A stretch of 64,000 bases of DNA from NCBI GenBank assembly GCA_023248155.1, contig JAHFFE010000002.1:42263-106262 (forward strand). The letters run 5' to 3'. The translations under genes were made by a program, and so were the position numbers. A model generated the notes under the pieces. The model searched no databases. It had not been told where the DNA came from and worked only from the letters and a program-made list of their open reading frames with translations. Numbering within the stretch: position 1 is the stretch's first letter; each line of letters opens with the position of its first letter. Shown here in pieces: positions 25,383 to 48,991 of this stretch. The stretch is from Candidatus Omnitrophota bacterium (lineage in GTDB: Bacteria > Omnitrophota > Gorgyraeia > 1-14-0-20-64-10).

Positions 25383-25795
25383 CCATTCTAATCATTGAAG
25401 ATGAAGCGCAGGTCCGTGAATTGCTCGGCCGCCGCCTGCAGGCGCACAGCTACGAAACGCAGGAGGCCGAGAACGGCAAGGTCGGCCTTGAAAAGGCCAA
25501 ACAGCTGAAGCCCGAACTGATCATCCTTGATTTGAATATGCCGGAGATCGACGGAATCCAGGTTTATCAGCGGCTGCGCCAGGATCCGGACACCGCGAAG
25601 ATTCCGGTTCTTTTTCTGACCGCATTGTCGGCCGGTGGAACGATGACCGAGCAAAGCCTGGCGATTATCGCTTCGGCGAAGCACCGTGTGCAGTTGACGG
25701 GAAAATATGCCGTCATGGGTAAACCATATGATGCTCAGCAGCTGTTGGAGACGATCCGAAAACTGCTGGGGCAGGAGAGCGCGCCGGCGGTATGA
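25379..25795 (+). CDS. Single-domain response regulator
   Basis: ATGA overlap with the kinase. ILIIEDEAQ…ILDLNMPEIDG…K. Confidence 0.85.
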   Translation: MTILIIEDEAQVRELLGRRLQAHSYETQEAENGKVGLEKAKQLKPELIILDLNMPEIDGIQVYQRLRQDPDTAKIPVLFLTALSAGGTMTEQSLAIIASAKHRVQLTGKYAVMGKPYDAQQLLETIRKLLGQESAPAV

Positions 25796-27465
25796 AATCG
25801 ACCAAGCAGACCGATGAACGGCTCGTTGAAGAAGGGCTGATTACGCCGGAACAGCTGGCGAAGGCCCGCTCGGAAGCGCTGCGCGGCGGAGGCACCGTGC
25901 GCGAAGCGATCCTGCGAATGCGGTTTGTCGAGCCGTCGCGCATGGCCGACTGGCTCAGCCAGCAGCTGCAGATTCCGCGCGTGGAATTAAAATCGTACGT
26001 GATCGATTCGAAAGTTCTGCAGCTTGTTCCCGAGGCGCTGGCCCGCAAGCATCGCGTCATCCCGTTGTTTAAGGTAGGTAATTCGCTCACCGTTGCCACG
26101 GCCGATCCGCTGAATTTAATCGCGCTCGACGAACTGCATTTGAAAACCGCCAAAACGATCGAACCGGTTGTCGCCACCGATCAGGAAATTAATCAGGCGC
26201 TGGCCGATTATTACGGCACGAAAGGGCGCGTCGATGAGCTGGTGTCGGGGATGCCGGCCGAGACCGCCGCGGCGGAACTTCCTTCCGGCGCCGCTGCCGC
26301 GCAGAAAGCGTCGGACCCGCCTGTGGTGCAGCTGGTTAATCTGCTGCTCACCGACGCGGCCCGTTACCGCGCGTCAGATATTCACCTGGAACCCGAGCAT
26401 GAGGGGATGCGCGTCCGGTTCCGCATCGACGGAATTTTGCGCGAACAAACGGTGCTGCCCAAATCGCTGGAGCCGGCCGTTGTTTCGCGCATCAAGATTC
26501 TTGCCGGCATGGACATTGCCGACCAGCGCAAACCGCAGGACGGCCGTTTCCGGACGACGCTGGAAGGGCACGAGGTCGATCTGCGTATTTCGGTGATTCC
26601 GTCGATGGACGGAGAAACGGTCGTGATGCGTTTGCTGGATACGCAGGGCTTGCGCCTCGACATGAGCCAGCTGGGCATGGATGCCGACATGTTGGCACGC
26701 TACCAGCAGCTGGTTCAGCGCGCCTGGGGAATTTTGCTGGTGACCGGTCCGACCGGTTCCGGAAAAACGACGACACTGTATTCGACGCTGGCGTCGCTCA
26801 ATGCCGTCGAGCGCAACATCGTCACGATTGAAGATCCAGTCGAATATCGTTTGTCCGGCATCCGGCAGATTCAGGTGAATTCATCCGTGCAGCTGACGTT
26901 CGCCACCGGCTTGCGTTCGATTTTGCGTCAGGACCCCAACATCATCATGGTCGGAGAAATCCGTGACCGCGAAACGGCCGAGATCGCGATTCAATCGGCG
27001 TTGACGGGTCATATGGTTTTCTCGACGCTGCATACCAATGACGCGGCCACCGCCATTACACGGCTGCTCGACATGGGCATCGAGCCGTTCCTGGTCAGTT
27101 CCAGCTTGATCGGCGTGTTGGCCCAGCGGCTGGTGCGCACACTTTGTCCCGAATGCAAAACCGACGATCCGGCGCAGGAAGAAAAAGCGCGCAAGATGGG
27201 GTTCACCGGGACGGGTCACTGGATGAAAGCGGCCGGCTGCCGCCAATGCGGAAAAACCGGATACCGCGGCCGGATCGCGCTGTTTGAGCTGATGCCGATG
27301 GATGAAACGATTCAGAAAATGACGCTGGCCAAAACGTCGGCGTCCGATATCGCCACGCACGCGCATTCCGCCGGCATGAAAGCGCTGCGCGAAGACGGGC
27401 TGGCCAAGGCGGCGGCCGGAATCACGACGATCGACGAGGTGTTCCGCGTCGTCTCGGAGGCGTAA
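25792..27465 (+). CDS. Type IV pilus/T2SS assembly ATPase (GspE/PilB family)
   Basis: GspE N-terminal domain, Walker A VTGPTGSGKTTTLYS, Asp and His boxes, tetracysteine CPEC…CRQC zinc motif. Confidence 0.9.
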   Translation: MKSTKQTDERLVEEGLITPEQLAKARSEALRGGGTVREAILRMRFVEPSRMADWLSQQLQIPRVELKSYVIDSKVLQLVPEALARKHRVIPLFKVGNSLTVATADPLNLIALDELHLKTAKTIEPVVATDQEINQALADYYGTKGRVDELVSGMPAETAAAELPSGAAAAQKASDPPVVQLVNLLLTDAARYRASDIHLEPEHEGMRVRFRIDGILREQTVLPKSLEPAVVSRIKILAGMDIADQRKPQDGRFRTTLEGHEVDLRISVIPSMDGETVVMRLLDTQGLRLDMSQLGMDADMLARYQQLVQRAWGILLVTGPTGSGKTTTLYSTLASLNAVERNIVTIEDPVEYRLSGIRQIQVNSSVQLTFATGLRSILRQDPNIIMVGEIRDRETAEIAIQSALTGHMVFSTLHTNDAATAITRLLDMGIEPFLVSSSLIGVLAQRLVRTLCPECKTDDPAQEEKARKMGFTGTGHWMKAAGCRQCGKTGYRGRIALFELMPMDETIQKMTLAKTSASDIATHAHSAGMKALREDGLAKAAAGITTIDEVFRVVSEA

Positions 27466-27469
27466 ACCG

Positions 27470-28699
27470 ATGCCGACGTTTGCGTATCAGGCGCGCGATG
27501 AAGCGGGGCGGCTGGTGAAAGGGTTTCAGGAGGCGGAATCCCAGACTCTGCTGCTGCAGCAATTGCGCAAGGCCGGTTATTTAATCACGCGGCTGGAAGA
27601 AAAGACACAACAGAGTACGAGCTGGCTGCCTGACCTTCAGTTTGGAAAAAGGGTCGACGGGCAGGACCTGCTGATGGCTATTTTACAGCTGGCGAATCTG
27701 GTCGAGGCCGGACTTCCGCTGTTAACGGCGCTCAATACCGTTTGCGAGCAGTGGGCCGACGGTCCGCTGAAAGAGGCGCTCAGCGCCGTCGTGCGCGACA
27801 TTGAATCGGGCGAGAAATTTTCGCAGGCGCTCAAAAAGCATCCGCATATTTTCCCGAAATTAATGGTGAGCATGGTGATGGTCGGCGAGCAGACCGGAAA
27901 ATTGGACCTGGTGCTGATGCGGTTCTCGTCGTTTCTCGAACGGGACATGGCCGAACGCAGGGCGCTTCAGTCGGCTCTGAGTTATCCGATTTTGCTGTTT
28001 TGCGCCAGCATCGTGCTGGTGCTTTTCGTGGTGACGTTTGTGGTGCCGCAGTTTTCCGAGTTGTTCGTCAAGGCCGGCGTGCGGATGCCGGCGCCCACGC
28101 TCTTTTTATGCGGCGTCGGAAAATCGATCCGGCAATACTGGTGGCTCATGATTCTTTCGGTGCCGGCGGCCGGGGTTGGGGTTCCTCTGCTGATGCGCCG
28201 TCCCGATGTTCGCGCGTTCTGCGACCGATGGATTCTGAAAGTTCCGATATTCGGGAAGGTGATTTATCAGACGGTCATCCTGCGTTTCGCGCGCAGCCTG
28301 GCCACGCTGGTGGCCAGCGGCATCTCGATTTTGAGCGCGCTGGATACCGCCCGGGAAATGGTCGACAACCAGATGATCGAAGCCGAGCTCAAGCGCGTGC
28401 GCAGCGCCGTCGAGCGCGGCGAGAAACTGTCGGCGGCGCTGGCTGCCGGGAAAATTTTTCATCCCGACGTGGTGCAGATGGTCAAGGCCGGCGAAGAATC
28501 CGGCCGCATGGACGCGATGCTCGACAAGGTCGCCGATTTTTATGAGATGCGCGTTAATTTTTCATTGAAACAAATGGTTACTTTTCTGGAACCGCTTTTA
28601 TTAATGGGGATGGGAGGCATCGTCGTTTTAATTATGGCGTCTTTGATCTTGCCGATGTTTGATATGGTCAAGGTCTTACAAAATGGAGGGTTACGCTGA
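27470..28699 (+). CDS. Type IV pilus/T2SS inner-membrane platform protein (GspF/PilC)
   Basis: Two T2SSF repeats, three TM segments. ATGA overlap with the following gene. Confidence 0.85.
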   Translation: MPTFAYQARDEAGRLVKGFQEAESQTLLLQQLRKAGYLITRLEEKTQQSTSWLPDLQFGKRVDGQDLLMAILQLANLVEAGLPLLTALNTVCEQWADGPLKEALSAVVRDIESGEKFSQALKKHPHIFPKLMVSMVMVGEQTGKLDLVLMRFSSFLERDMAERRALQSALSYPILLFCASIVLVLFVVTFVVPQFSELFVKAGVRMPAPTLFLCGVGKSIRQYWWLMILSVPAAGVGVPLLMRRPDVRAFCDRWILKVPIFGKVIYQTVILRFARSLATLVASGISILSALDTAREMVDNQMIEAELKRVRSAVERGEKLSAALAAGKIFHPDVVQMVKAGEESGRMDAMLDKVADFYEMRVNFSLKQMVTFLEPLLLMGMGGIVVLIMASLILPMFDMVKVLQNGGLR

Positions 28700-29172
28700 T
28701 GAAAATGAGGCAACGTAAAATAAGCAAAGGGTTCACGCTGGTCGAGTTGATCATCGTGATCGCCGTGATCGCGATTTTGCTGGGCATCGCGCTTCCGCGG
28801 CTGCGCGGCATGATTGACGAAGGCAACTCCGCCCGCGCCGCTGCCGAAGTCCGCGCGCTGCAGGCGGCAGTCGAGTCTTTCTTTATCCATAACGCCCGCG
28901 TTTATCCGGCGGCCGGCGCGACCTGGGAAAACGCGTTAGTGGCCGCGAGCCCGCGGCTGATTGGCGCCGCGCTGCTCGATCCGTTTAACGGGGCTGTTCA
29001 ATATCAGTACGCGCTATCGGCCAACGGCCAGTTTTATGTAATCTCGTCGTTCGGCCCCAACAGGGCTGCAACGATTATCGGCATTGATAACACCGGCGCG
29101 GTCACTCCTGCGGGAGCTACCGGAGACGATATCTTCAGCTCGAACGGCACTCCGGGTAACGGCGGGTTTTAA
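28699..29172 (+). CDS. GspG-like major (pseudo)pilin with prepilin peptidase site
   Basis: KGFTLVELIIVIAVIAILLGIALP N-methylation motif. AAAEVRALQAAVESFFIHNARVYP resembles the GspG alpha-beta loop. Confidence 0.8.
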   Translation: MKMRQRKISKGFTLVELIIVIAVIAILLGIALPRLRGMIDEGNSARAAAEVRALQAAVESFFIHNARVYPAAGATWENALVAASPRLIGAALLDPFNGAVQYQYALSANGQFYVISSFGPNRAATIIGIDNTGAVTPAGATGDDIFSSNGTPGNGGF

Positions 29173-30153
29173 TTGGTAGTGGAGTTACTGCGAGGGAAGG
29201 GACGGCTCCAGCTGGTGCTTGGGGCCGTCCTGACCTGCGGCGTGGGGATCGCGTTGTCAATGGCCGCGCTGATGGTGCCCGAGCGTTTTGATGCCTGGCG
29301 CATCTACGCGTTCGGCGTGGGCGTTATTTTTTTCATGCTGGCCTATCTGATTTCCAGCTTTCGGCACGCTTCTAAAATCGAAACACTGGTTCTTGAACGG
29401 ACCGCTGAGTTGCAGGCGGCCAACCTGCGTCTGCTTGAGTTGGGAAAAATCAAGGATGAATTTGTCGCGGTGGTCAGCCATGAACTGCGCACGCCGATCG
29501 CCGTGATGCGCGAGGGGATCTGCCAGATGCAGGAAGGGGTTTGCGGTCCGATTACTCTGGAACAGCAGGCAACCATCGCGATCACATTAAGAAATCTCGA
29601 GCGGCTGCGCGAGCTGGTTGAGGATATGCTCGATATTTCCAAAATTGAAGCGGGAAAAATTGTTTTACAGCATGAAAAATTCGATTTTATTCAACTGGTT
29701 CGGGAAATCCAGAATTCTTTTTTGCCCCGTTCGCGCGAGAAAGAGATCGGCCTTGAATTGCATTTGCCGGGGCCGCATCTCTGGGTCCGGGCCGACCGCG
29801 CGAAACTGGCGCAGGTATTAACGAACCTGGTCAGCAACGCCATAAAGTTTACCGATCAGGGCGAGGTGCGCGTGACCGTGGAAGAGGACGCGCAACAGAT
29901 CCGGTGCGCGGTCTCCGACAGCGGCATCGGCATTTCGGACGAGAACATGCCCAAGCTGTTCCAGAAATTCCAGCAGTTTACGCGTCTCAGCAACGGTGAA
30001 AAAGGCAGCGGTCTGGGCCTGGCCATCTGCAGGGGGTTAATCGATCTGCATCAGGGCCGTCTCTGGGCCGAGTCGTCTTACGGAAAAGGAAGCCGTTTTA
30101 TTTTCAGCATCCCCAAGGGGGAAAACAGGGAGCCGTCCGCCGCCATCCGATGA
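29173..30153 (+). CDS. Membrane-anchored histidine kinase (2 TM, no periplasmic sensor domain)
   Basis: TTG start directly after the pilin stop (ATG 29260 is an alternative). H-box VSHELRTPIA, G1 DSGIGI, G2 GSGLGL. Confidence 0.75.
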   Translation: MVVELLRGKGRLQLVLGAVLTCGVGIALSMAALMVPERFDAWRIYAFGVGVIFFMLAYLISSFRHASKIETLVLERTAELQAANLRLLELGKIKDEFVAVVSHELRTPIAVMREGICQMQEGVCGPITLEQQATIAITLRNLERLRELVEDMLDISKIEAGKIVLQHEKFDFIQLVREIQNSFLPRSREKEIGLELHLPGPHLWVRADRAKLAQVLTNLVSNAIKFTDQGEVRVTVEEDAQQIRCAVSDSGIGISDENMPKLFQKFQQFTRLSNGEKGSGLGLAICRGLIDLHQGRLWAESSYGKGSRFIFSIPKGENREPSAAIR

Positions 30154-31274
30154 ACGAGTCGCCATTTGCCGTCAATCCGTTTTCGCGGGAAATCCGCGTT
30201 TTGCTGATCGAAAACGACCTGGCTGAAGTCCGCCGATTTAAAGAAGTACTCTCCGAGGCGGGAGAGAAATTATTTCCGGTCACCTGGGCCGATCGTATGG
30301 CCGAGGGTTTGAGCCGTATTTCGGGAGATTCCGTTGATCTGATCGCGCTTGGGCTTTCTCTGCCTGACTCGTCAGGAGCGGATCTGTTCGCGCGCGTCCA
30401 CGCGCAGGCGTCGCATCTGCCGATCGTGCTGCTGGTATCGGCCGCGCAGGAAACAGAAGCCCAGCAGGCCGTTCTGGCTGGCGCACAGGATTATCTAATC
30501 AGGGGAAAATGGGAATCGTCGGTTCTTCCGCGCGTATTGCGTTACGCGGTGGAGCGCAAAGCGGTCGAGCGGATGAAAGACGAATTCGTCAGCAGTGTTT
30601 CGCACGAATTGCGCACGCCGCTGGCGATCGTCAAGGAAGGCGTCAGCCTGGTTCTCGACGGAGTTTCCGGTCCGCTTACCGCCGACCAGGATAAAATCCT
30701 GAAAGTCGCCCAGGACAACATCGACCGGCTCGCGCGTATTATCGAGAACCTGCTGGATGTTTCGGAACTGGACCGCGGCCGCATGAAGCTGAAGATTCAG
30801 CCGATCGATATTTTTGATCTGATCCGAAAAAAAGCCGAACAGCTGGCGCCAAAAATCCGCGAGAAGGGCATCGAATTTTCAGTGCAGATCCCTTCTGAAA
30901 AAAAGATGATGGAAGCCGATCCGATCCGCGTCGAACAAATATTAACCAGCCTTTTGGGCAATGCGTTGAAATTCACACGTAAAGGTTCCATCGTGCTGTC
31001 GGTGACCGAAGAACCGGACCGTTTAATCTGCCAAATATCCGATACCGGCATCGGCATTGCGCGCGAAGATCTGCCTAAAATTTTCCGCCGGTTCCAGCAG
31101 TTTGGGCGCAAAGACGGCCCCGGCGAGCAGGGGACCGGGCTGGGACTGTGGCTTTCGCAGCAGTTTATCGAGCTTCATGGAGGATCGGTCTGGGTTGAGA
31201 GCGAACAGGGCCGCGGCACGCGCGTTTTCTTTTCGCTTCCGAAGCCGGTTGTTCCGGCGGTAGAACCGGCATGA
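30150..31274 (+). CDS. Hybrid receiver-histidine kinase (REC + HisKA + HATPase_c)
   Basis: N-terminal receiver (VLLIENDLAE…DLIALGLSLPDS…), then H-box VSHELRTPLA and DTGIGI/GTGLGL boxes. Confidence 0.8.
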   Translation: MNESPFAVNPFSREIRVLLIENDLAEVRRFKEVLSEAGEKLFPVTWADRMAEGLSRISGDSVDLIALGLSLPDSSGADLFARVHAQASHLPIVLLVSAAQETEAQQAVLAGAQDYLIRGKWESSVLPRVLRYAVERKAVERMKDEFVSSVSHELRTPLAIVKEGVSLVLDGVSGPLTADQDKILKVAQDNIDRLARIIENLLDVSELDRGRMKLKIQPIDIFDLIRKKAEQLAPKIREKGIEFSVQIPSEKKMMEADPIRVEQILTSLLGNALKFTRKGSIVLSVTEEPDRLICQISDTGIGIAREDLPKIFRRFQQFGRKDGPGEQGTGLGLWLSQQFIELHGGSVWVESEQGRGTRVFFSLPKPVVPAVEPA

Positions 31275-31663
31275 AAATCCGTCGGAATGCCGGTGGTTTT
31301 ACGCTGCTCGAGATGCTGATCGCGCTGGGCATTTTAATGACGGGTGTTCTTGCGACGGTCTACCTGGTAAGCCGCGGCATTGCCGCGACGAATGATACCG
31401 AGTCCACCGAGCAGGCGCTGGCATTGGCGCAGCAGCGGATGGAAGCGCTTCGCTCGGGCGCTTATGCCGCGATTGTCAACGAACCGCGTGCCGCCGTGGC
31501 CGGCTGGGTTAATTTCGACCGCCAGGTGGTTGTAGCACAGCCGGCCGGTACCGGTGTGAGCAATCAGATTCGCCAGGTCACCGTTACGGTATTTTGGCCG
31601 ACGACCGGCGGCGAGCAGAACCTGACATTAACCACCTATGTCTGCAATGTCGTCAATAACTAG
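31271..31663 (+). CDS. Minor pseudopilin (prepilin-type N-terminal domain)
   Basis: GGFTLLEMLIALGILMTGVL. Confidence 0.75.
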   Translation: MKIRRNAGGFTLLEMLIALGILMTGVLATVYLVSRGIAATNDTESTEQALALAQQRMEALRSGAYAAIVNEPRAAVAGWVNFDRQVVVAQPAGTGVSNQIRQVTVTVFWPTTGGEQNLTLTTYVCNVVNN

Positions 31664-32180
31664 GCGGTCGCGCGGCGTCAGTCTGCTTGAATTGATTTTG
31701 GCGGTTGGTCTTTTTTCTGTACTGCTGATTGCGCTGTTCGGTGTTTACCGGATCATTTTTATCTCGACCACGTCGGTTCAGGACCGGATGCAGCTGCAGC
31801 GGAGCGCCGAGCATGGCCTTGAAAAAGCGATCCGCGATTTGCGTACCGCGGTGGCGCTGCAGAACGATCCGAGCAACGCGATCCGGTACACGCTTCAACA
31901 GGGCGCTGCGCAGAATTCGTTTATTTTATATCTCTACAACGCGGCCGACCCGTTTCTGCCGCCTTACACGCAGCCGACGTATGAACTTCGGCAGGCGCCC
32001 GTCGCCGGCGCGATTGGCGGCGCGTTTGTGTATGGCGCCGGCACGCTGTTGGTGCGCGATGTTCAGCCGCCGCCGGCATCGGTTATTCAGGTTGCCGGAA
32101 CATTGGCAACGCTGGATCTCAGCGTGACGCGGGGAAACGAAACTTACCGTCTGGTTAAACAGGTCAGGCGCAGAAGTTGA
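31638..32180 (+). CDS. Minor pseudopilin (prepilin-type N-terminal domain)
   Basis: RGVSLLELILAVGLFSVLLIAL; overlaps the preceding gene. Confidence 0.65.
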   Translation: MSAMSSITRRSRGVSLLELILAVGLFSVLLIALFGVYRIIFISTTSVQDRMQLQRSAEHGLEKAIRDLRTAVALQNDPSNAIRYTLQQGAAQNSFILYLYNAADPFLPPYTQPTYELRQAPVAGAIGGAFVYGAGTLLVRDVQPPPASVIQVAGTLATLDLSVTRGNETYRLVKQVRRRS

Positions 32181-33073
32181 TGCGCGCCTCTGCGCAGCGC
32201 GGAGTGGCGCTGGTGATGGTGATGGCTTTTTTGATTCTGTTCGCGACGATGGCGACATTTTTTGTTTTCACGGCCTCTGTTTTCGTAAAGAACAGCGGCT
32301 GGGAGCAGGTGGACCACCAGGTATTCTGGATTGCGGAGGCCGGTTTGCAAAAAGCGATTTGGAATTTGAAAACGCCGGTTGCCAGCGGTGGGCGGGGTGA
32401 GCTCTGGACAACGGCTGGAACTCTGGAAAATTTGGCCAATGGGAACTATACGATGGTGGTTGAGGCCTGGGATTACGCACTTGCCGCCAATGGGGCCACT
32501 GCGGTGTCCGTACCACCCACTGTTGTCAATCCCGCTTCTAATGCGATTGATGGCAACGGCGCTACTTTCTGGGAGTCCAGTGGATCACCTGTAATCACTC
32601 AACAAGATTTAATCATCACACTGCCTTATGCGATTACCGTGAATCGGTTGCGGTTCTTAGCGTTTAGTACTCCAGCGTTTCCACAAAACTACATTCCGCG
32701 GGATTATAGTTGGGCTGTTTCCCCAGACAACGCGGTTTGGACGCCTGCTTTACCCGCGATTACCAACAACACCAGTGCTGACAGTGATCTTGCCGTTCCA
32801 CCGGCTTTAGCTGTGGGCGGGCCGGCGGATGTTTTTCCCGCTCAGACGAATGTGCGGTTTGTCCGTTTGCGGACGACGCGGGATGGTGTCGGGGCTCCCG
32901 CGCGCGCGCGTGTCATTGCTCTGGAGATCAACGGCCGGCGGATTACTTCCACGGGCCGGATTACGACCGGCGGGGTTACCATTGCCAGGACTGTCCGCCA
33001 AACGGTTGTCACCGACGACGCGCTTCCTCAAAATCAAGTGGCTTATTACCAGCCCGACTGGACGGAGCAGTAG
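32177..33073 (+). CDS. GspK/PilX-like minor pseudopilin carrying a discoidin (F5/8 type C)-like domain
   Basis: RGVALVMVMAFLILFATMA leader region. Central NAIDGNGATFWESSG…QDLIITL…YSWAVSPDNAVW matches the discoidin-domain pattern. Confidence 0.6.
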   Translation: MMRASAQRGVALVMVMAFLILFATMATFFVFTASVFVKNSGWEQVDHQVFWIAEAGLQKAIWNLKTPVASGGRGELWTTAGTLENLANGNYTMVVEAWDYALAANGATAVSVPPTVVNPASNAIDGNGATFWESSGSPVITQQDLIITLPYAITVNRLRFLAFSTPAFPQNYIPRDYSWAVSPDNAVWTPALPAITNNTSADSDLAVPPALAVGGPADVFPAQTNVRFVRLRTTRDGVGAPARARVIALEINGRRITSTGRITTGGVTIARTVRQTVVTDDALPQNQVAYYQPDWTEQ

Positions 33074-33075
33074 CG

Positions 33076-34653
33076 ATGGCCGAACGAATTTTAGCGCTTG
33101 ATCTGGGAACCGAATCGTTCAAACTGCTGACGGCTGAGGAGCAGGCTGGTTCATGGGTCATCACGCATCTGGGTTCCAAAGAGATTCCTCCCGGCGCCAA
33201 TGACGCGATTCGTCTGCAGGCCTTAAAAGAATTAATCGGCGAGATTCAGTTAAAACAATTCCGCACCGTCGTCAGCGTGCTGGACGATTCTTTTTCATCT
33301 GTGCGCCAGATTTACACGCCGCCGATACCGGCATCGGAACTGCTTTCAGCGGTCCGCTGGGAAATGCAGAATTTTCTGGCGATCCCTCCGGAAGAAACGG
33401 CGGTTGATTTAATTTCTTTGGGCACGGTTGATTTAGGCGGCGTTACCAAACAGAGGCATATCGCGGCGGCGGTCTCCGTCGAGGCGGTCCGCAATCATTG
33501 CGCGCTGCTGGCGTCGGCCGGCATTCGTCCGTCGCAACTGATCCCGAAAAATTTAGCGCTCGCTCTCTGCGCCGAAAAGCTACAGCCGTCTTCGGCCGAT
33601 CTGCCCCGCGTTATTTTGGATATCGGGTCGTCTTCGGCCGAATGCGTCGTGCAGGAAGGGCTGTGGCCGGTGTTTGCGCGCAGAATTCCCGGCGGATCGC
33701 AGGGGCTGACGCGCGAGATGAGCGGCATGATCGTTTCGGGCCAGGGGCAGGTGGCGCTTACGGCCGATGAAGCCGAACAGTTAAAACGCCGCGTCGGGAT
33801 CCCTTCAAGGGACGCCGGAGACCTGGGCGTCAAAGGGATTTCCGGCATGCAGCTTTTTTCGCTGATGCGCGCCTGGCTGGACCGCCTGGCCGTTGAAACC
33901 GAACGCTCGGTCACTTTTTATGGTGAGACTTCCGGCCGCAATGCCGTTGCCGAAATTATTCTGCTGGGCGGCGGCGCCCATCTGCGCGGATTGCCCGAAT
34001 GGCTCTCGGAACGGCTCGGGGTCCGCGTGAGCGTTCCGGCCGGATTAACGGGTGATCAGGCCGTTTTCGGAAAATTTCCGTCTGTCCGGGGCGTGGAATG
34101 CGCTTACGCGGCCGTTCTGGGTGCTGTTTACGGCGAAGGCAAAGGCCTGAATCTTTTACCGGCTGAAATACGCGAAAAAACAAAACGGACGGTTCAACGG
34201 ATGGCGGCCGCGGCGCTGGGCGCCGCTTTCGCGGTGGCGCTGATCGTCGGCGGCGTAGGCTTGCGATTGTATCAGCGTAATTTACGGGGACAGATCGCCG
34301 CGATGGAAATCGAAGCCGCTTCGACTAACCAGCGCTGGGCTGATTTAAAAGAATATTTGTCGGCCCGGAACCGCATTATCTCCGAACCGCGCTGGCGTGA
34401 TTTTTTAATGGAGTTAAGCCAAGCGACCCCCGCTCAAATAAAGCTCTCTTCGTTGACAGTGGATGAAACCCGCCAGGTCACGCTGCGCGGAGTTATTCAT
34501 GCCGGGCCGCGCTCCGTGCAAGATCTGATGGCCGATTATTTGCGCGTGCTGCATGGCCGCTCATTAACTCAGGTCGAATTGCGACGGACCCGCCGTACGG
34601 ATAATGATTCGGCTGAGGCGGAGTTTGAAATCGGAGGCCGCTTACTGCCATGA
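33076..34653 (+). CDS. PilM-PilN fusion protein (actin-like ATPase + bitopic N component)
   Basis: N-terminal ILALDLGTESFKLL (PilM/FtsA-like). Internal TM (AAAALGAAFAVALIVGGVGL) followed by a PilN-like coiled coil. Confidence 0.7.
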   Translation: MAERILALDLGTESFKLLTAEEQAGSWVITHLGSKEIPPGANDAIRLQALKELIGEIQLKQFRTVVSVLDDSFSSVRQIYTPPIPASELLSAVRWEMQNFLAIPPEETAVDLISLGTVDLGGVTKQRHIAAAVSVEAVRNHCALLASAGIRPSQLIPKNLALALCAEKLQPSSADLPRVILDIGSSSAECVVQEGLWPVFARRIPGGSQGLTREMSGMIVSGQGQVALTADEAEQLKRRVGIPSRDAGDLGVKGISGMQLFSLMRAWLDRLAVETERSVTFYGETSGRNAVAEIILLGGGAHLRGLPEWLSERLGVRVSVPAGLTGDQAVFGKFPSVRGVECAYAAVLGAVYGEGKGLNLLPAEIREKTKRTVQRMAAAALGAAFAVALIVGGVGLRLYQRNLRGQIAAMEIEAASTNQRWADLKEYLSARNRIISEPRWRDFLMELSQATPAQIKLSSLTVDETRQVTLRGVIHAGPRSVQDLMADYLRVLHGRSLTQVELRRTRRTDNDSAEAEFEIGGRLLP

Positions 34654-40528: not shown

Positions 40529-41926
40529 TTAATTACCGGCGCCGGTATTGCGCGCCAGTGCGAAGAACGATTCGGCCACATCTTCGGCCACCTGCCCGTT
40601 GCGGATCAAATCCATGATGGAACGCTCCAGCGTGTACATCTTGGCGTTTCCACCGGTTTCAATCACGGAAGGCAGCTGGGAAAGAGTGCCGTTGCGGATA
40701 ATGTTCCGGCCGGCCGAGGTGGGCACGAATACCTCGGTGGCGAGTGCCAGCCCGCCCTCAAGCGCTTGTTCGCGCGGAATCAGGTACTGCGTCAAGACTC
40801 CCTGAAGACAGCTGGCCAGCTGGAAGGTTGCTTGCTGGCGCTGTTCCGGCGAGCAAATAGTCGCGAACCGGTCGATCGCCTGCACGGTGTTGGTGGCGTG
40901 GAACGACGCGAGCACCAGCGTGCCGGTTTCAGCCGCGTTGAGAACTACCTGCGCCGTTTCAGCGTCATCGACCTCACCGACGACAATGACATCGGGGTCC
41001 TGCCGCAGCGCGCGGCGCACGGCCTCGGCGAATGACAGCGTATCGGAACCCACCTCGCGCTGTTTGATCACCGCTTTTTTGTTTTGGTGAATATATTCAA
41101 TCGGCCGCTCCAGGCAGATGACGATGGCATCGCGATCTTCGTTGATCTGTTCCACCAGGCTGTTGAGCGTCGTTGTTTTTCCGGACCCCGTCGGGCCAAC
41201 CACCAGAATCAGGCCGCTGTTTTTGCGCGTCCAGTCAATGACTACCGACGGAAGCCCCAGTTTTTCCCAATGGGTTACTTTCGCCGGGATACTGCGGATT
41301 GCTGTCTCGACCTGGCCGCGCTGCCAATGCACATTCAGGCGGAACCGTTGCGTGACCGAGATCGAGTAGGCCAGATCCATCTCCCGCTGTTTCTCAAACA
41401 TGCAGATCTGCTCATCGGACATGACACTATAGACCAGCGAACGGATCTCGCCGGGTTTCAAAATTGGAAACTTCATCGGCTTGAGCCGTCCGCGCACGCG
41501 CGCGATCGGCGGGCTGTTCGTGGTTAAATGCAGGTCGGAACCGCCCATTTTGATTAATTCTTCCAGCAGGTTGCGGATATCCATCGTTTCCAGCCGCTGC
41601 AAGATTTCGATGGCGCTGGAAGGATCGATTCTTTCGAACTGCAGGCCAAGCCAATATTTTTGCGCCGGGATTTTTTCTTCCACGCGAATGACGCGGCAGT
41701 TGGCCAGCAATGTTTGATTGTACCCGGGAACATGCAGCTGCAACCGTATCGCCGCGCCGATTTCCACAGGGGAAGCGGTGTTAATGAGCGCGCCGGTTGA
41801 GCTGACATTAACGGTGGTGGAGGGAAGCAGTACTCCGAAAGGAGCACCGTCTTTCAGCAGCTGATACGCTGCCACATAGGCCAGTTGGGCGCGATACGCG
41901 CGCGATGTTTCAGTAGTGTTCGCCAT
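40529..41926 (-). CDS. PilZ-domain/PilT-family retraction ATPase fusion
   Basis: N-terminal ~110 aa contain RAYRA (RxxxR) and NVSSTG ((D/N)xSxxG) c-di-GMP-binding PilZ motifs. C-terminal part is PilT-like (Walker A VVGPTGSGKTTTL, Asp box, His box). Confidence 0.75.
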   Translation of the reverse strand: MANTTETSRAYRAQLAYVAAYQLLKDGAPFGVLLPSTTVNVSSTGALINTASPVEIGAAIRLQLHVPGYNQTLLANCRVIRVEEKIPAQKYWLGLQFERIDPSSAIEILQRLETMDIRNLLEELIKMGGSDLHLTTNSPPIARVRGRLKPMKFPILKPGEIRSLVYSVMSDEQICMFEKQREMDLAYSISVTQRFRLNVHWQRGQVETAIRSIPAKVTHWEKLGLPSVVIDWTRKNSGLILVVGPTGSGKTTTLNSLVEQINEDRDAIVICLERPIEYIHQNKKAVIKQREVGSDTLSFAEAVRRALRQDPDVIVVGEVDDAETAQVVLNAAETGTLVLASFHATNTVQAIDRFATICSPEQRQQATFQLASCLQGVLTQYLIPREQALEGGLALATEVFVPTSAGRNIIRNGTLSQLPSVIETGGNAKMYTLERSIMDLIRNGQVAEDVAESFFALARNTGAGN

Positions 41927-42003: not shown

Positions 42004-43446
42004 TTAGCTTGAATAGGTGATAACCACCCGCCCGACGGCGCCGTTATTGGATCCGGACGGAGATCGGGCAAACCAGCCGCATCCTCCGCCTCCGGGAGCT
42101 ACGCCGTCTGTTCCGATAAAGCGTGAACTGTTCAATTCACCAACGCTTCCGGCGCCACCATTTCCTCCGCTTCCTCCCGCCCGTTGGTATAATGTAAAAA
42201 ACGGCGCTATGGCATCCTGGCCCGAAATATTAAATGTTGCCGTACTGGTTCCGCCTCGTCCTACAATAGCTCCTTCAATTCCTCCAGAGCTTCCGCCTCT
42301 TCCGCCTGTAGCGCTAACAGCAGGGGGAACATTCAGTCCTGTTACGGAGGAGGTGCCGCCGTTGCCTCCGGTATTTGAATTTGTTTTCTGACCTGTTCCT
42401 CCGGCACCGACCGTGATGGTCAAAACGGCTCCAGGTGTTACCGTCGCGAGTTGTCTGCCGTAACCTCCACCTCCACCTCCGTGACCAAACTGAGCGCCGC
42501 CAGCGTTGGGGCTTCCGCCACCGCCACCTCCACCTCCCCAAACTTCAACTGTGACTCCTGTTACTCCGGCCGGTACAGTCCAGTTCGTTGCTCCGGCTGT
42601 GCCAAATACCACTTGCGTTGTCAGGCCTACGCTTCCGCTTACGGAGGCTAAAATAGTAGTCCATGCTGTTCCGTTGTAGAGATTTAATTGGTTCGTAGTG
42701 GTGTTGTAAATTATCAGCCCGGCTACTGGACCGGCAATCGCGTTCCGCTCGGCCGTGATCATTCGAGGAGGGAGAAACCCCTTTGTCGTAGAAGTCAGAT
42801 CCAATGCCGCCGATGCGGCCGGCGCCGCCGTTCCGATCCCCACATTCCCGCCCAGAGGGTTCAACACCAGGTTTCGGAAAGCCACATTCTGTGACTCCGC
42901 TTGAATGTAGCCGGTATTGGTAAAGTTGGTGCTGTCGTAATCCCGGTTGAACCCCAGCGCTAGGCCTCCATTCCCCGCAGCGAGGCTCGGCGTGTTCAGA
43001 TAAATGCCGCTTTGCCCGTTCGCTGAAATCCGCGCCCCGCTGGCCCCAGCTACATCCAACGCGTAAGCGGGGGCCGCCGTCCCAATCCCAACCCGTATTC
43101 CCGGAGTTCCCGGCACTCCAGCGTTGTCTGCTCCAGACGAGAAAATGACATTACTGATGGCGTCATCGGCCCCCACCACATGCAGCGGTCCCTGCGGGTT
43201 GGTAGTCCCGATACCCACTGGACCTACGATGAACGCCGCGCCATTGTTTAGAGGAGGGGTTGGCGTTGCCTCAAAATCGGTTCCGACCGTTAAGCTTTGG
43301 AGATGTTGATTGCCTGTGTTGGACGAAGAGGGGTAGTAGGTGACCAGTTCGACGGTTTCCGCCCACGCGTAACCGGCGAGGATGCCAATGATGAGGAATA
43401 AAAACAATGCGTTGCCGCTGGAAAACCTGCTTTTAATTTTTATCAA
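42004..43446 (-). CDS. Secreted glycine-rich protein with tail-fibre-like repeat motifs
   Basis: Signal peptide. Repeated VGIGTTNPQGPLHV, NVGIGTAAP…LDL and KGFLPPRMT…YNGTAW motifs reminiscent of phage tail-fibre/collar modules. C-terminal GGGGGGG-rich region. Confidence 0.5.
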   Translation of the reverse strand: MIKIKSRFSSGNALFLFLIIGILAGYAWAETVELVTYYPSSSNTGNQHLQSLTVGTDFEATPTPPLNNGAAFIVGPVGIGTTNPQGPLHVVGADDAISNVIFSSGADNAGVPGTPGIRVGIGTAAPAYALDVAGASGARISANGQSGIYLNTPSLAAGNGGLALGFNRDYDSTNFTNTGYIQAESQNVAFRNLVLNPLGGNVGIGTAAPAASAALDLTSTTKGFLPPRMITAERNAIAGPVAGLIIYNTTTNQLNLYNGTAWTTILASVSGSVGLTTQVVFGTAGATNWTVPAGVTGVTVEVWGGGGGGGGSPNAGGAQFGHGGGGGGYGRQLATVTPGAVLTITVGAGGTGQKTNSNTGGNGGTSSVTGLNVPPAVSATGGRGGSSGGIEGAIVGRGGTSTATFNISGQDAIAPFFTLYQRAGGSGGNGGAGSVGELNSSRFIGTDGVAPGGGGCGWFARSPSGSNNGAVGRVVITYSS

Positions 43447-44056: not shown

Positions 44057-44641
44057 ATGAGTGACGCGGAGCTGGTTGAACAAGCGCGTGCCGGAGACCG
44101 GCAGGCATTTGATCAACTGATGCAACGCTATGAGCGCGAAATGATCGGCGTGGCCTATCGAATGCTGGGCCACTCCGAAGACGCGGTCGATTTGGCACAG
44201 GAGGTGTTCTTGCGCGCCTGGCGCGGGCTCGGCCAGTTTCGCGGCGAAGCGTCGTTTCGCAGCTGGCTTTACCGGATCGCGCTCAATCTGGCGCGCAACA
44301 AACGCCGGTGGTACGCGCGCCATCGGATTGCTTCGATGGTTTCATTAAGCCCGTCCGACGAAGAGACCGAAGAAGGGGACCCTGCGCCGGTTGTACCGAT
44401 CGCTGACCCCTCGACGGATCCGCGTGCCGAGGCGCAGGCGAGTCAGTTTCAGGAAGCGGTGCGGCAGGCGTTGGAAAAACTTCCGGCGGAATTTCGGGAA
44501 ACGGTGATATTAAGGGATATTCAACAGTTGTCGTATGAGGAAGTCGCGCAAGCGACCGGACAACCGGTTGGAACGGTCCGGTCGCGGTTATCCCGCGGCC
44601 GGCATTTGCTGCGGGAAGCGTTAAAAGGAATTTATCCATGA
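44057..44641 (+). CDS. ECF (group IV) sigma-70 factor
   Basis: Region 2 (…DLAQEVFLRAWRGLGQFRG…SWLYRIALNLARN) and region 4 HTH (LSYEEVAQATGQPVGTVRSRLSRGR). Confidence 0.9.
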   Translation: MSDAELVEQARAGDRQAFDQLMQRYEREMIGVAYRMLGHSEDAVDLAQEVFLRAWRGLGQFRGEASFRSWLYRIALNLARNKRRWYARHRIASMVSLSPSDEETEEGDPAPVVPIADPSTDPRAEAQASQFQEAVRQALEKLPAEFRETVILRDIQQLSYEEVAQATGQPVGTVRSRLSRGRHLLREALKGIYP

Positions 44642-45598: not shown

Positions 45599-45624
45599 GG
45601 AACTTTTTCTTCCGCCCGGTGTCT
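45599..45624 (+). promoter_or_regulatory. ECF-type promoter P2 (GGAAC-N17-GTCT) before the precursor-MNIO operon
   Basis: GGAAC at 45599-603, GTCT at 45621-24. About 55 nt including the 5' UTR and GGGAGG Shine-Dalgarno are nearly identical to P3. Confidence 0.6.
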
Positions 45625-45653
45625 GCATCAGTAGAAAAGGGAGGAATAAACCA

Positions 45654-45863
45654 ATGAAAATTCCAGCGTCAGTGTTAGCGGTCATGTTGGTTGGATTGGG
45701 AAGCGTCGGCGTGATGGGCTGTGCCGCGCACCAGACTCCGACTGAAAAAGCACCCAAAAATAAACCGGACTCTGTTGAGCCGGCTGCCAACCCCCAACCC
45801 GAAACACCGAATCGCCCGAGTCGTTCTGCCGGTTATGAGTGTCGTGCCTGCGGAATGGGATAA
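45654..45863 (+). CDS. 69-aa secreted/lipobox peptide with C-terminal YECRACGMG; candidate RiPP precursor
   Basis: MKIPASVLAVMLVGLGSVGVMG|C signal + lipobox. Pro/Glu-rich linker, C-terminal CxxC. Immediately upstream of the DUF692 gene and behind the GGGAGG Shine-Dalgarno of P2. Confidence 0.55.
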   Translation: MKIPASVLAVMLVGLGSVGVMGCAAHQTPTEKAPKNKPDSVEPAANPQPETPNRPSRSAGYECRACGMG

Positions 45864-45865
45864 AA

Positions 45866-46738
45866 ATGGGGATTCCTCTCGTAGGGCTGTCGTTAATGCC
45901 GGAGGACCCCTTTCGTCAGGCGGCCTACCCTCTTTTTGAAGCGGGGGAAGTCGATGTTCTGGAATGGAGTTTTGATATGGGGTGGGCCGGCGCTCCGTTG
46001 CCTGAATGGATGGAGCAACTGCTCCATCTTTATGGGCAGCGGGGCCGCCTGCTGGGGCATGGAGTTTCATTTTCGCTCTTGTCCGGACAGTGGACCGACC
46101 GCCATCAGAGGTGGCTGCAATTATTATCGGAAGAAGCCACTCGCCACCGGTACCGGCATATCTCCGAACATTATGGATTTATGACGGCCGGAACTTACCA
46201 GAAAGGGGCTCCATTACCGGTCCCCAAAACTCCCGATACAGTTCGTCTCGGGCAGGACCGGTTGCGCCGGCTGGCCGAAGCGGCCGGATGTCCGGTCGGG
46301 CTGGAAAATCTGGCGTTTGCGTTTGGCGCTCATGATGTTTGGGATCAAGGTTCTTTTTTGGAAGAACTGCTGGAATCAGTGGATGGCTTTCTTCTGCTCG
46401 ATCTTCATAATCTCTACTGCCAGTCGGTAAATTTCAAAGCGCCTTGGACTGAATTAGTCGCGCAATACCCGCTCCATCGCGTTCGGGAGCTGCATCTTTC
46501 AGGCGGGTCCTGGTTCGCCGGTGAGCCGTCTTCCCGCTATGAACCGATCCGGCGCGATACGCACGATGGCGCTGTGCCCGAGGAACTTTTCGCTATGCTG
46601 CAGTCCATTTTGAAACGGGCTCCGGCGGTTGAAGCGGTAATTCTCGAACAGCTGGGCGATTCATTAGAGAGCGACGAATCGAAGGTTCGATTCCAGGCCG
46701 ATTACCGGAAAATTCGGGCGATTGTCCATGGACAATAA
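45866..46738 (+). CDS. DUF692 / MNIO (multinuclear non-haem iron oxidative) enzyme, MbnB/TglH/BufB-like
   Basis: Start at ATG 45866 (MGIPLVGLSL…), 3 nt after the peptide stop. HGVSFSL, SEHYGF, PVGLENLAFAF, LLLDLHNLYCQSVNF, VRELHLSGG and RRDTHDG match the conserved DUF692 TIM-barrel blocks. Confidence 0.8.
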   Translation: MGIPLVGLSLMPEDPFRQAAYPLFEAGEVDVLEWSFDMGWAGAPLPEWMEQLLHLYGQRGRLLGHGVSFSLLSGQWTDRHQRWLQLLSEEATRHRYRHISEHYGFMTAGTYQKGAPLPVPKTPDTVRLGQDRLRRLAEAAGCPVGLENLAFAFGAHDVWDQGSFLEELLESVDGFLLLDLHNLYCQSVNFKAPWTELVAQYPLHRVRELHLSGGSWFAGEPSSRYEPIRRDTHDGAVPEELFAMLQSILKRAPAVEAVILEQLGDSLESDESKVRFQADYRKIRAIVHGQ

Positions 46739-46934
46739 AACCTGCGAAGATAAAAACCTCGATAATTTCCAAAGCCGCTTGCTGGAGCTTATGCTGCAGC
46801 CGCTCTCGCAAGAACAGCGCTGGAGAGCTCTGAAAACAGACCCTCTTTTTATACCCTACCAGAACTACATCGCCTCATTTGATCCGCGCATGATGGAAGT
46901 GGCCGCGCAGATTATCCGGAAATGGACTGTTTAG
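46722..46934 (+). CDS. 70-aa protein resembling only the N-terminal (substrate-recognition) part of the DUF2063 MNIO partner
   Basis: Overlaps the MNIO 3' end by 17 nt. LDNFQSRLLELMLQP…YQNYIASF pattern resembles the DUF2063 N-terminus; the C-terminal domain is absent. Confidence 0.4.
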   Translation: MSMDNKTCEDKNLDNFQSRLLELMLQPLSQEQRWRALKTDPLFIPYQNYIASFDPRMMEVAAQIIRKWTV

Positions 46935-46937
46935 CCG

Positions 46938-46963
46938 GGAACTTTTTCCTCCGCCCGGTGTCT
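46938..46963 (+). promoter_or_regulatory. ECF-type promoter P3 (GGAAC-N17-GTCT) before the 639-aa secreted protein gene
   Basis: GGAAC at 46938-42, GTCT at 46960-63; near-duplicate of P2 including UTR and Shine-Dalgarno. Confidence 0.6.
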
Positions 46964-46991
46964 GCATTAGTAGAAAAAGGGAGGAACGACG

Positions 46992-48911
46992 ATGACTATT
47001 CAAACAAAGATTTTCGCGATTGCGGTGGCAGCGGTAGCGTGGATTACAGCCGGCCAGTCTTTTGCCGAGGCAACGACCGAGCCGTATTCATTGGAGCAGG
47101 GCCGTTATTCCGCGGTTGTCGACGGGGAAAAAGTTAAAATTCAGGCGGCGCTGGAATTCAAGGTGCTTGAAGACGGCCTGATCCAGATTCCGGTTTCGTT
47201 TGGCGGCGCCGAAATTCTGGATCTGAAATTATCCGGAGGATCCGCCGTGTTGGCGGTTGAGAACGACCAATACACGGTTCGGATTAGCCGCAAAGGAACC
47301 GTTCGGCTGACGGCCATGTTGATCGTGCCGTTGTCGCGCAATGCGGATCAGGAAGGGTTTTATCTCGAGATTCCGCAGGCGGTTTTTTCTTTCTGCACGG
47401 TCACGGTTCGGCGCGCCAGCGTGCAGTTAAGTCCTAATTATGCGGCCGCCGGAACCAGTCAGACCCGCGGCGATCAGACGATCATTACGCTGCCGTTGGG
47501 CTTAAAGCGGCAGGCCCAGGTTTTCTGGACGGTCCGCCCAATCCAGGAAACGCCGAAAACAACAGAACCGGTGGAGCCGGTTTATTTGGCGAATCTGCAG
47601 CTGCTGGGCACGCTGGAAGAAGAAACATTCCGTTGTTTGGCCACCGTTGATTTGCATCTGCTGCAGGGCGAATTAAAAACGGCTTTGTTCGAGCTGCCTT
47701 CGGGCTGGACCGTTACCGGGGTGCGCGGGGGTTCCGGCATTGCGGATTGGAAGACCGAGGCGGCCGGTTCGAATCAGCAGATCACGGTTATTTTCAACCA
47801 GCCGTTCAAGGAGGGGAACCTTCGTCTGCTGATTGATGCCGAACAACCGCTGAGCAGCGGCAGTGCCTCGGTTTCTTTGCCGAGTATTATTCCGGTCGGC
47901 GCAAAACGGTTAACGGGCCAATTGGCGCTGGCAACGGCCACGGCCATGGAATTGAAAGATCCGGTGATGGAAGGGGTCAAGCGGATCGATGTCCGGGAAT
48001 TGCCCGACGAATTGCGCGCGATGGCCAACGCGCCGGTCGTGGCGGCATTTCGTTATATGGAAGCCCCTTACCATGTGACGACCCAATTAATCCGTCCCGA
48101 AGAATTGCCGGTATTGGTGGCGATCGCTGAATCGGGAGAGTTAATCACGGTGGCTGCGCCGACGGGTGAAACCATTACGCGCGCGATTTATCAAATCCGT
48201 AATAACAAAAAAACAACGCTGAGCGTCACACTGCCGGCGGGGTCTACGCTCTGGTCGGTGCTGGTCGACCAGCGTCCGGTGAAGCCGTCGGCCGGACCGC
48301 GCGGGCAGATTCAAATTCCGATCATGAACAACCATGGTCCGGAAACGGTCTTCCCGGTGGAAATCGTCTATGTCCAGAAAACCGGTTCATTGAAATCGTT
48401 ACTTGGCCAAGTCCGTTACGAAGGTCCCGGCCTCGATATCCCGGTCACCGTTTCGTCCTGGAAACTGCTTTTACCCGACGGATTGATAAAGATCGGTTAT
48501 TCCGGCAATGTAGAAGCTGGTTTTTCGGTGAACACGGTGCCAGTCGAATTGGCTGCTTATCGCGATGTTTCGGCGAATGCGGCGCTCCGACGGGACTCTG
48601 CCCGATGCCAAAAAGTATTAGCCGCTGCTCCGGCAGCGCAGTCGTTGGCCGATTGCGAGTATAAGGTAAAGGAAGAATTTCAGGAGGTGGTTGGTAAAAC
48701 TCAGCAAACCGGCGTGCTGCCGTTCCGGATTTCAATTCCGCAGAGCGGCCGCGTTTACCGGTTTGGCCGGTTGCTGGCCGTCAACGAGCCGATGTCGGTC
48801 CAGATTAATTATGTCCGGACATCCGCAATGCCGTTCGCCAGCGGCGGAATGGTGTTTGTTGGATTGATGGGGCTGGCGGGTGTTGCCCGGCTGGTTCGTG
48901 CCAAGAAGTAA
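46992..48911 (+). CDS. Large secreted beta-rich protein with C-terminal TM anchor; member of the ECF regulon
   Basis: Signal peptide MTIQTKIFAIAVAAVAWITAGQSFA, C-terminal GGMVFVGLMGLAGVARLVRAKK. No catalytic motif recognised. Confidence 0.55.
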   Translation: MTIQTKIFAIAVAAVAWITAGQSFAEATTEPYSLEQGRYSAVVDGEKVKIQAALEFKVLEDGLIQIPVSFGGAEILDLKLSGGSAVLAVENDQYTVRISRKGTVRLTAMLIVPLSRNADQEGFYLEIPQAVFSFCTVTVRRASVQLSPNYAAAGTSQTRGDQTIITLPLGLKRQAQVFWTVRPIQETPKTTEPVEPVYLANLQLLGTLEEETFRCLATVDLHLLQGELKTALFELPSGWTVTGVRGGSGIADWKTEAAGSNQQITVIFNQPFKEGNLRLLIDAEQPLSSGSASVSLPSIIPVGAKRLTGQLALATATAMELKDPVMEGVKRIDVRELPDELRAMANAPVVAAFRYMEAPYHVTTQLIRPEELPVLVAIAESGELITVAAPTGETITRAIYQIRNNKKTTLSVTLPAGSTLWSVLVDQRPVKPSAGPRGQIQIPIMNNHGPETVFPVEIVYVQKTGSLKSLLGQVRYEGPGLDIPVTVSSWKLLLPDGLIKIGYSGNVEAGFSVNTVPVELAAYRDVSANAALRRDSARCQKVLAAAPAAQSLADCEYKVKEEFQEVVGKTQQTGVLPFRISIPQSGRVYRFGRLLAVNEPMSVQINYVRTSAMPFASGGMVFVGLMGLAGVARLVRAKK

Positions 48912-48991
48912 AAAGAGTGGGCTCCCTGACCAGGTTTTCAGGGAGCCCGGTTCTTTGTTCTTTTTGATTCTCTGCGTGGTAAAATAACAGT

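Follow-up and report, generated by a model that had tools for sequence, protein, structure and literature searches.

What is the small protein encoded by the short open reading frame (ORF) that overlaps the end of an MNIO (DUF692) gene in the window, i.e., in the whole 64-kb stretch of DNA analysed here? An earlier note had described it as a small, translationally coupled partner of the MNIO that resembles the first approximately 60 residues of DUF2063, and had offered two views of its nature: a minimised RiPP recognition element (RRE) or a decayed gene. We consider it highly probable that the ORF encodes the stand-alone C-terminal helical-bundle subunit (Hc, of the MelHc type) of an MNIO of the ChrH subfamily. 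The locus is a chryseobasin-like lipoprotein-RiPP operon, made up of an ECF sigma factor, an anti-sigma factor, a precursor with a lipobox, the MNIO and Hc. The separate encoding of Hc has already been published, in PNAS in 2026 (PMC13056109), and the ORF in the window is an ordinary further case of this arrangement. The features of the locus are the following.

44057-44641, plus strand: ECF sigma factor (Pfam match; syntenic in contig L001)
44638-45591, plus strand: zf-HC2 anti-sigma factor (Pfam match; syntenic in contig L001)
45599..45653, plus strand: candidate ECF-sigma-type promoter GGAACTT-N16-TCTG and leader with a strong Shine-Dalgarno sequence, AAAGGGAGGAA, upstream of the precursor gene
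45654..45863, plus strand: precursor peptide, 69 amino acids, with lipobox ...GVMGC (Cys23) and C-terminal CRACGMG
45866..46738 (ORF from 45839), plus strand: MNIO (DUF692) assigned to the ChrH subfamily, 290 amino acids, without the C-terminal bundle
46722..46738, plus strand: overlap of the MNIO and Hc genes, without a strong Shine-Dalgarno sequence; probable site of translational coupling
46728..46934, plus strand: Hc gene, 68 amino acids, 8.19 kDa (8190 Da), pI 6.1; alternative TTG start at 46722
46938-46991, plus strand: second copy of the candidate promoter and leader, before the 639 amino acid gene
46992-48911, plus strand: 639 amino acid protein that matches no family
48918-48949: strong terminator with a 12-bp stem, after the 639 amino acid gene

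The small ORF is a gene

The ORF is present on the plus strand at 46722..46934, where the earlier note had placed it, and comprises 70 amino acids when read from the TTG at 46722, which gives an overlap of 17 nt with the end of the MNIO gene. Read from the ATG at 46728 the overlap is 11 nt; the Hc reading frame is +1 relative to that of the MNIO. We regard the ATG as the likelier start, because public gene calls use it (call P0001, 68 amino acids long, begins at the equivalent ATG) and because it follows the family pattern, an ATG overlapping the MNIO stop codon by 1-19 nt. With this refinement, the reported ORF and its overlap stand. Since Hc lacks a strong Shine-Dalgarno sequence, its translation is probably coupled to that of the MNIO.

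Is such a short ORF a gene at all? A word-index search with the 70 amino acid ORF returns only itself and one relative, and the Hc family comes into view only through an exhaustive HMMER search and through scanning the DNA downstream of MNIO homologues. The exhaustive search covered 1.84 billion cluster representatives and gave 112 clusters of relatives at E ≤ 1e-3. Another contig (L001), fully syntenic with the locus, carries a 68 amino acid copy of Hc, 76% identical, at the equivalent position, together with an MNIO that is 88% identical, and the junction of the two genes differs from that of the window by a single base. Between these two loci the dN/dS ratio is 0.20 in the Hc frame, compared with 1.7 and 2.0 when the DNA is read in either of the other frames; the MNIO value is 0.14. 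Hc is under purifying selection. Given the 112 clusters of relatives, the syntenic copy and the dN/dS ratio, the ORF is a genuine gene, and a chance ORF is excluded. The Hc of the window also retains Q15, which is invariant in the family alignment, and L18, L35, A59 and W66, which are nearly so. It is hydrophilic (GRAVY -0.55; maximum 19-residue hydropathy 0.21), has no transmembrane segment and, judged by its sequence, is a soluble protein.

The MNIO is of the ChrH type

The upstream gene was correctly recognised as an MNIO in the earlier note: it matches PF05114 in Pfam at 1.6e-31. Its stop codon occupies 46736-46738 and its likely start is the ATG at 45866, 2 nt past the stop codon of the precursor gene, which leaves only 2 nt between the precursor and MNIO genes, followed by the 11-nt overlap of MNIO and Hc. 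In NCBIfam, the MNIO matches MNIO_ChrH at 2.9e-102 (342 bits; profile positions 2-283 of 363), compared with 2e-24 (86 bits) for BufB and 73 bits for HvfB. These profile scores place it in the chryseobasin maturase (ChrH) family, as against the BufB type. Most close homologues are 280-300 amino acids long, while a few have approximately 380. The nearest MNIOs among GTDB species representatives are 60% identical and belong to Planctomycetota.

Hc is homologous to the C-terminal bundle of fused enzymes

Several comparisons connect Hc with the C-terminus of the longer enzymes. By BLASTP, it matches the last approximately 58 residues of two fused MNIOs (P0042, 383 amino acids, 8e-10; P0097, 381 amino acids, 2e-7). 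When the family of 64 Hc members is compared by hhalign with the fused MNIO of Hymenobacter volaticus, the probability is 90% (E 1.6e-6) and the match covers residues 315-377 of 377. The Hc ORF alone aligns weakly with the NCBIfam ChrH profile, at positions 302-361 (E 0.11). An AF2 model built from an alignment of 71 sequences has four helices (4-23, 28-37, 39-49 and 53-67) and no strands, with a mean pLDDT of 85.7; a Foldseek search with this model gave no match at E ≤ 0.001.

The closest tie to a characterised system is to Candidatus Melainabacteria bacterium SJ512, the source of the mel cluster studied in PMC13056109. In its contig (L075), a 332 amino acid stop-to-stop ORF ending in PCPACGMG is followed by an MNIO and then by a 68 amino acid ORF (L075:5153-5356) that is 39% identical to Hc over 57 amino acids (E 8e-14). 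The 332 amino acid ORF is consistent with the published 34-kDa MelA1, and the 68 amino acid ORF we take to be MelHc, an assignment that goes by isolate name and locus content and not by an accession number.

The separate form prevails in a census of loci

How common is a separate Hc? We scanned one genome per GTDB species with the MNIO alignment and obtained 80 loci, 45%-60% identical to the window MNIO. An iterated Hc HMM was then run on all stop-to-stop ORFs of 83 sequences, namely these 80 loci, L001, the window region and L002, which is an independent assembly of the identical sequence and thus a duplicate of the window. The Hc domain lies directly after the MNIO in 81 of the 83 sequences, which is to say in all 81 that extend past the MNIO; in the other two, L032 and L059, the contig stops inside it. 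The domain is encoded separately in 68 of the 81 loci and fused in 13. The short form, whose conservation in related genomes the earlier note had proposed to check, is thus conserved.

The separate form accounts for 7 of 7 loci in Verrucomicrobiota, 10 of 11 in Planctomycetota, 11 of 13 in Cyanobacteria and 17 of 21 in Melainabacteria/Obscuribacterales. One or a few split loci each come from Chlamydiales, Bdellovibrionales, Oligoflexales, Myxococcota, Acidimicrobiales, Vicinamibacteria and Pseudomonadota, and about ten phylum-level groups are represented among the split loci. Five of the six Bacteroidota loci are fused. One further arrangement is found in a Sandaracinaceae MAG (L054), where the ORF that directly follows the MNIO (5875-7089) joins Hc to the N-terminal end of a zinc-dependent alcohol dehydrogenase.

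For the junctions we set the window and L002 aside and considered the remaining 66 split loci, in which the median Hc length is 70 amino acids. In 62 of these, the best Hc start codon overlaps the MNIO stop codon. The idea of a small, translationally coupled MNIO partner was essentially right. An ATG with an 8-nt overlap is the commonest junction (31 of 66), with overlaps of 4, 11, 14 and 1 nt next. Both alternative frames are used for Hc, in 48 and 18 loci, respectively. The constant start codon at the junction, without a slippery site, favours coupled re-initiation over programmed frameshifting or decay.

These proteins have largely escaped annotation. Pfam and NCBIfam offer no model for proteins of the Hc type (60-110 amino acids), and these are called “hypothetical protein” wherever a source names them.

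Precursor peptide and promoters

The precursor matches the NCBIfam model ChrA_rel_RiPP (“chryseobasin-related MNIO class RiPP peptide”) at 8.7e-8, which is under the curated cut-off. Its motif has Arg (CRACGMG) where the family consensus has Pro (CPxCGxG), whereas the L001 orthologue ends in CPPCGRG. Analogous ORFs ending in C..CG.G are found in 61 of 82 loci. Owing to the Arg in place of Pro and to the score below the cut-off, the product could differ from the known chryseobasin type.

A 30-nt element, GGAACTTTTTCYTCCGCCCGGTGTCTGCAT, has two copies, one at 45599 ahead of the precursor gene and one at 46938 ahead of the 639 amino acid gene, and in both places it is followed by the strong Shine-Dalgarno sequence given above. 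Its degenerate form, GGAACTT-N16-TCTG, has no further copy in the 64-kb window (2 observed, 0.08 expected), and both copies are kept in L001. It resembles the sigma-E-type ECF promoter consensus, and we treat both copies as candidate ECF-sigma promoters. The ECF sigma factor and the anti-sigma factor are the probable regulators of the operon.

Comparison with known systems

In the published work (PMC13056109), the C-terminal domain of ChrH-like MNIOs is described as separately encoded in Cyanobacteriota. MelHc is recovered together with His-tagged MelH on purification, modification of MelA1 (-4 Da at CPACGMG) requires co-expression of MelHc with MelH, and an AlphaFold 3 model of the MelH/MelHc complex places the substrate motif in the active site of the MNIO (PMC13056109). 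The window locus is similar to this system in many respects. MelHc is also 68 amino acids long and directly follows an MNIO core of approximately 285-290 amino acids, with a start codon that overlaps the MNIO stop (by 8 nt at the MelHc locus and by 11 nt in the window); it is likewise predicted to be an all-helical bundle, of an approximately 7.8-kDa type compared with 8.19 kDa in the window. The window MNIO, like MelH, falls in the ChrH subfamily, and both substrates end in CxxCGMG, with CPACGMG in MelA1 and CRACGMG in the window precursor. There are differences as well. MelA1 is secreted, carries an SPI signal and has a mass of 34 kDa, while the substrate in the window is a 69 amino acid lipobox peptide; the mel host belongs to Melainabacteria, whereas the window host, so far as can be judged, is neither a cyanobacterium nor a melainabacterium, and the window gives a faint pointer to the PVC superphylum; and the window operon, unlike the mel system, sits behind an ECF sigma/anti-sigma pair.

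The Bacteroidota enzymes ChrH, DybH, HymH and ChsH carry a homologous bundle fused by a linker, and the single polypeptide is active alone; in the window the bundle is a separate gene product. The precursors of the DybA type are short lipobox peptides, as in the window, and such short lipobox precursors are lipidated through the lipoprotein pathway (“DAG-RiPPs”; PMC13056109). The first-reported partner of ChrH was ChrI, a DUF1772 integral membrane protein of the Chryseobacterium chr cluster (PMC10214503), which was later found to be dispensable (PMC13056109). ChrI is a multi-pass membrane protein beside a ChrH-type MNIO, whereas Hc is hydrophilic; a ChrI-like partner is ruled out, as Hc has neither a DUF1772 match nor a transmembrane segment.

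Proposed mechanism

Starting from the homology, fold class, gene arrangement, conservation and purifying selection established in the present analysis, we can outline how the operon might work, with complex formation, the requirement for Hc, the chemistry and the lipidation drawn by analogy from MelH/MelHc and DybH (PMC13056109). The precursor, MNIO and Hc genes would be transcribed together, most likely from the ECF-sigma-dependent promoter. Termination on the MNIO frame would most likely be coupled to the start of Hc translation, giving roughly equimolar subunits. By analogy with MelHc, Hc would then associate with the TIM barrel of the MNIO, and the two would make up the active heterodimer; both this step and the need for Hc are carried over from a single characterised system, whose Hc is 39% identical. 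The heterodimer may oxidise the two cysteines of CRACGMG to a macrocycle of the chryseobasin type and an imidazolidinedione (-4 Da), and the modified peptide would be exported and lipidated at Cys23 via the lipoprotein pathway. We think the scheme as a whole, from coupled translation through the heterodimer and the chemistry at CRACGMG to export and lipidation, rather probable.

Alternative explanations

Could Hc instead be a naturally minimised DUF2063/BufC partner that has kept the N-terminal part binding the MNIO or the peptide? DUF2063 genes do follow and overlap MNIO genes in bufferin operons, and the best local hhalign pairing sets the N-terminal “LAxFQxALL” of Hc against the N-terminal “QxAFxxxL” of DUF2063. 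BufC and HvfC (DUF2063, PF09836) thus share with Hc the position of the gene, downstream of and overlapping the MNIO gene, and a short N-terminal “Q-x-(A)F/L-x-x-L” motif; they differ in their length of approximately 250 amino acids, in the MNIO subfamily they accompany and in their DUF2282/EGKCG precursors. In these proteins the DUF2063 domain is joined to a domain of the RRE type (PMC12452194). The reported resemblance to the first approximately 60 residues of DUF2063 does not hold at the profile level. PF09836 gives no match for the Hc ORF at E ≤ 1 and none for the 64 family members at E ≤ 10 in Pfam. Seven BufC-type genes from bufferin operons on plasmids, each lying after a DUF692 gene, served as positive controls, and all three of those scanned match PF09836, at 3.7e-16 to 3.6e-24. 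A profile-profile comparison with DUF2063/BufC, the check named in the earlier note, also speaks against it: by hhalign, the Hc family and the alignment of the seven BufC sequences pair with a probability of 0.6% and a score of 15.9. A short N-terminal “FQxxL” motif is probably the source of the seeming resemblance. In addition, the MNIO scores as ChrH type (2.9e-102) far above BufB (2e-24), the precursor is related to ChrA, and the comparisons above show Hc as the C-terminal part of fused ChrH-type enzymes, which makes a reduced DUF2063 protein very improbable. Neither a DUF2063 fragment nor a minimised RRE finds any likeness to Hc in sequence, profile or fold. The RRE is a PqqD-like winged helix of three helices and a three-stranded beta-sheet, and it is ruled out because the Hc model is all-helical, with four helices and no strands.

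The remaining alternatives accept the relation of Hc to ChrH and concern the split itself or its role. A recently frameshifted fused ChrH gene, or an error of sequencing or assembly, would also leave an ORF that is out of the MNIO frame and overlaps the MNIO, and 13 of the 81 loci do have the domain fused; a decayed gene of this kind has next to no probability, given that the split is identical in L002 and alike in L001 (76% identity in Hc, 88% in the MNIO), that it recurs, with a start codon at every junction, in 66 other species-level loci belonging to about ten phylum-level groups, that dN/dS is 0.20 with the split form conserved, and that the MNIO ends where most of its homologues do (280-300 amino acids). 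Programmed ribosomal frameshifting within the 11-17-nt overlap, yielding a single MNIO-Hc polypeptide and only an apparent split, would suit the short overlap, the +1 downstream frame and the fused proteins of other lineages. However, Hc lies in one frame in 48 loci and in the other in 18, overlaps range from 1 to 19 nt, and the constant element is a start codon (mostly ATG) and not a shared slippery sequence; moreover, separately expressed MelH and MelHc form an active complex (PMC13056109). We judge frameshifting very unlikely. Somewhat less remote, but still improbable, is a role for Hc as a docking or adaptor protein that recruits tailoring enzymes or the export and lipidation machinery to an MNIO whose active site is complete without it. 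The attachment of the C-terminal domain via a linker in the fused enzymes (PMC13056109) and the fusion of Hc to an alcohol dehydrogenase in L054 would be in line with such a role, although the latter was seen only once, in a high-GC MAG. In E. coli, with the other proteins of the cluster absent, MelH does not act on MelA1 unless MelHc is present (PMC13056109), and this points to a direct role of Hc in catalysis or substrate positioning.

Implications for annotation

The main value of identifying Hc as the separate C-terminal subunit lies in the annotation of small Hc proteins. As Pfam and NCBIfam have no model for Hc, ChrH-type clusters outside Bacteroidota could be scored as “partner-less”, or the split could be mistaken for a frameshift. 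The inactivity of MelH alone means that expression of the window cluster should include the 8-kDa gene with the MNIO. The census widens the published statement on Cyanobacteriota, since the split is the majority state well beyond that group. A bolder reading, which we offer only tentatively and consider somewhat doubtful, is that the split into an MNIO core and an 8-kDa Hc prevails among chryseobasin-type enzymes across at least ten phylum-level groups and may even be their ancestral state, that the characterised fused enzymes of Bacteroidota are a derived exception, and that Hc is a portable docking module which other enzymes can carry too, the alcohol dehydrogenase fusion in L054 being an example. 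If this were true, Hc would be a new, unannotated class of MNIO partner beside MbnC, TglI and DUF2063. In the window locus itself, a split enzyme and a precursor that is a short lipobox peptide occur together, two features which published work has characterised in separate systems, and the locus adds probable ECF control. No new principle is involved, and the added value is modest.

The gene downstream of Hc

The 639 amino acid protein encoded after Hc found no match in family searches that included Pfam and NCBIfam, and besides the window its gene adjoins an MNIO only in L001. It is probably part of the regulon of the operon. No terminator-like site lies between Hc and this gene, which is possibly on the transcript of the operon as well. 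Rfam searches of the region and of the whole window yield only two tRNAs, which have no bearing on the locus. The window also holds a weak match to PilM of the Amuc_1101 family.

Paired putative promoter and leader elements

An ECF-sigma-like promoter with a strong Shine-Dalgarno (SD) leader behind it occurs twice in nearly identical form, once before the precursor gene and once before a gene for a 639-amino-acid protein. The features are as follows.

45599-45653, + strand: ECF-sigma-like promoter and SD leader, copy 1, before the precursor gene
46938-46991, + strand: ECF-sigma-like promoter and SD leader, copy 2, before the 639-amino-acid protein gene
46992-48911, + strand: 639-amino-acid protein gene, directly 3' of Hc (the helical-bundle subunit gene) and behind the second promoter copy
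48918-48949, + strand: terminator with a 12-bp stem, after the 639-amino-acid protein gene

The promoter pattern is GGAACTT-N16-TCTG, and the leader that follows it is AAAGGGAGGAA. Across the 64 kb of the window the pattern occurs at these two places and nowhere else, against an expectation of 0.08 occurrences. Both promoter/leader copies are kept in L001, the syntenic contig of a relative. Given two near-identical copies that are conserved in this way, the ECF sigma/anti-sigma pair encoded alongside is suggested to control both units, the precursor and the 639-amino-acid protein gene.

The 639-amino-acid protein has no match in Pfam or NCBIfam. Its counterpart in L001 is 84% identical, and, that contig aside, the gene was not found beside the MNIO gene in the other 80 loci. 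By eye, the protein has a signal-like segment at its N-terminus and a hydrophobic tail at its C-terminus.

Precursor core and Hc fusion

The core of the precursor (45654-45863, + strand) reads CRACGMG, with Arg replacing the Pro of the family consensus CPxCGxG, while that of its L001 orthologue is CPPCGRG. Between the two precursors identity is just 58%, compared with 88% for the MNIO. Some related loci (L007, L010, L024) carry a tandem pair of precursor genes.

In one related locus, from a Sandaracinaceae MAG, Hc is part of a larger protein:

JBFWYI010000018.1 (L054), 5875-7089, + strand: fusion of Hc and a zinc-dependent alcohol dehydrogenase

Here the Hc domain is joined to the N-terminus of the dehydrogenase (ADH_N, 1.5e-28; ADH_zinc_N, 3.3e-18), and the fusion gene lies directly 3' of the MNIO gene, overlapping its stop by 8 nt. 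The fusion may hint that a tailoring enzyme can be tethered through Hc.

Other genes in the window

Type IV pilus/type II secretion genes are also present, at 25792-34653 (+ strand) and 40529-41926 (- strand). The assignments listed below, for these genes and for a further, glycine-rich protein, draw on precomputed domain annotation of L002, an independent assembly of the same sequence. The match of the PilM-like protein to the Amuc_1101 family hints weakly at an affiliation of the organism with the PVC superphylum.

25792-27465, + strand: PilB/GspE ATPase (Pfam domains)
33076-34653, + strand: PilM-like protein (weak match to the Amuc_1101 family)
40529-41926, - strand: PilZ-T2SSE protein (Pfam domains)
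42004-43446, - strand: glycine-rich protein of 480 amino acids (PTL_trimer and Gly_rich_2 domains)

The gene for the glycine-rich protein lies just upstream of an Ig_CycH-like gene, which is followed in turn by the ECF sigma factor gene.
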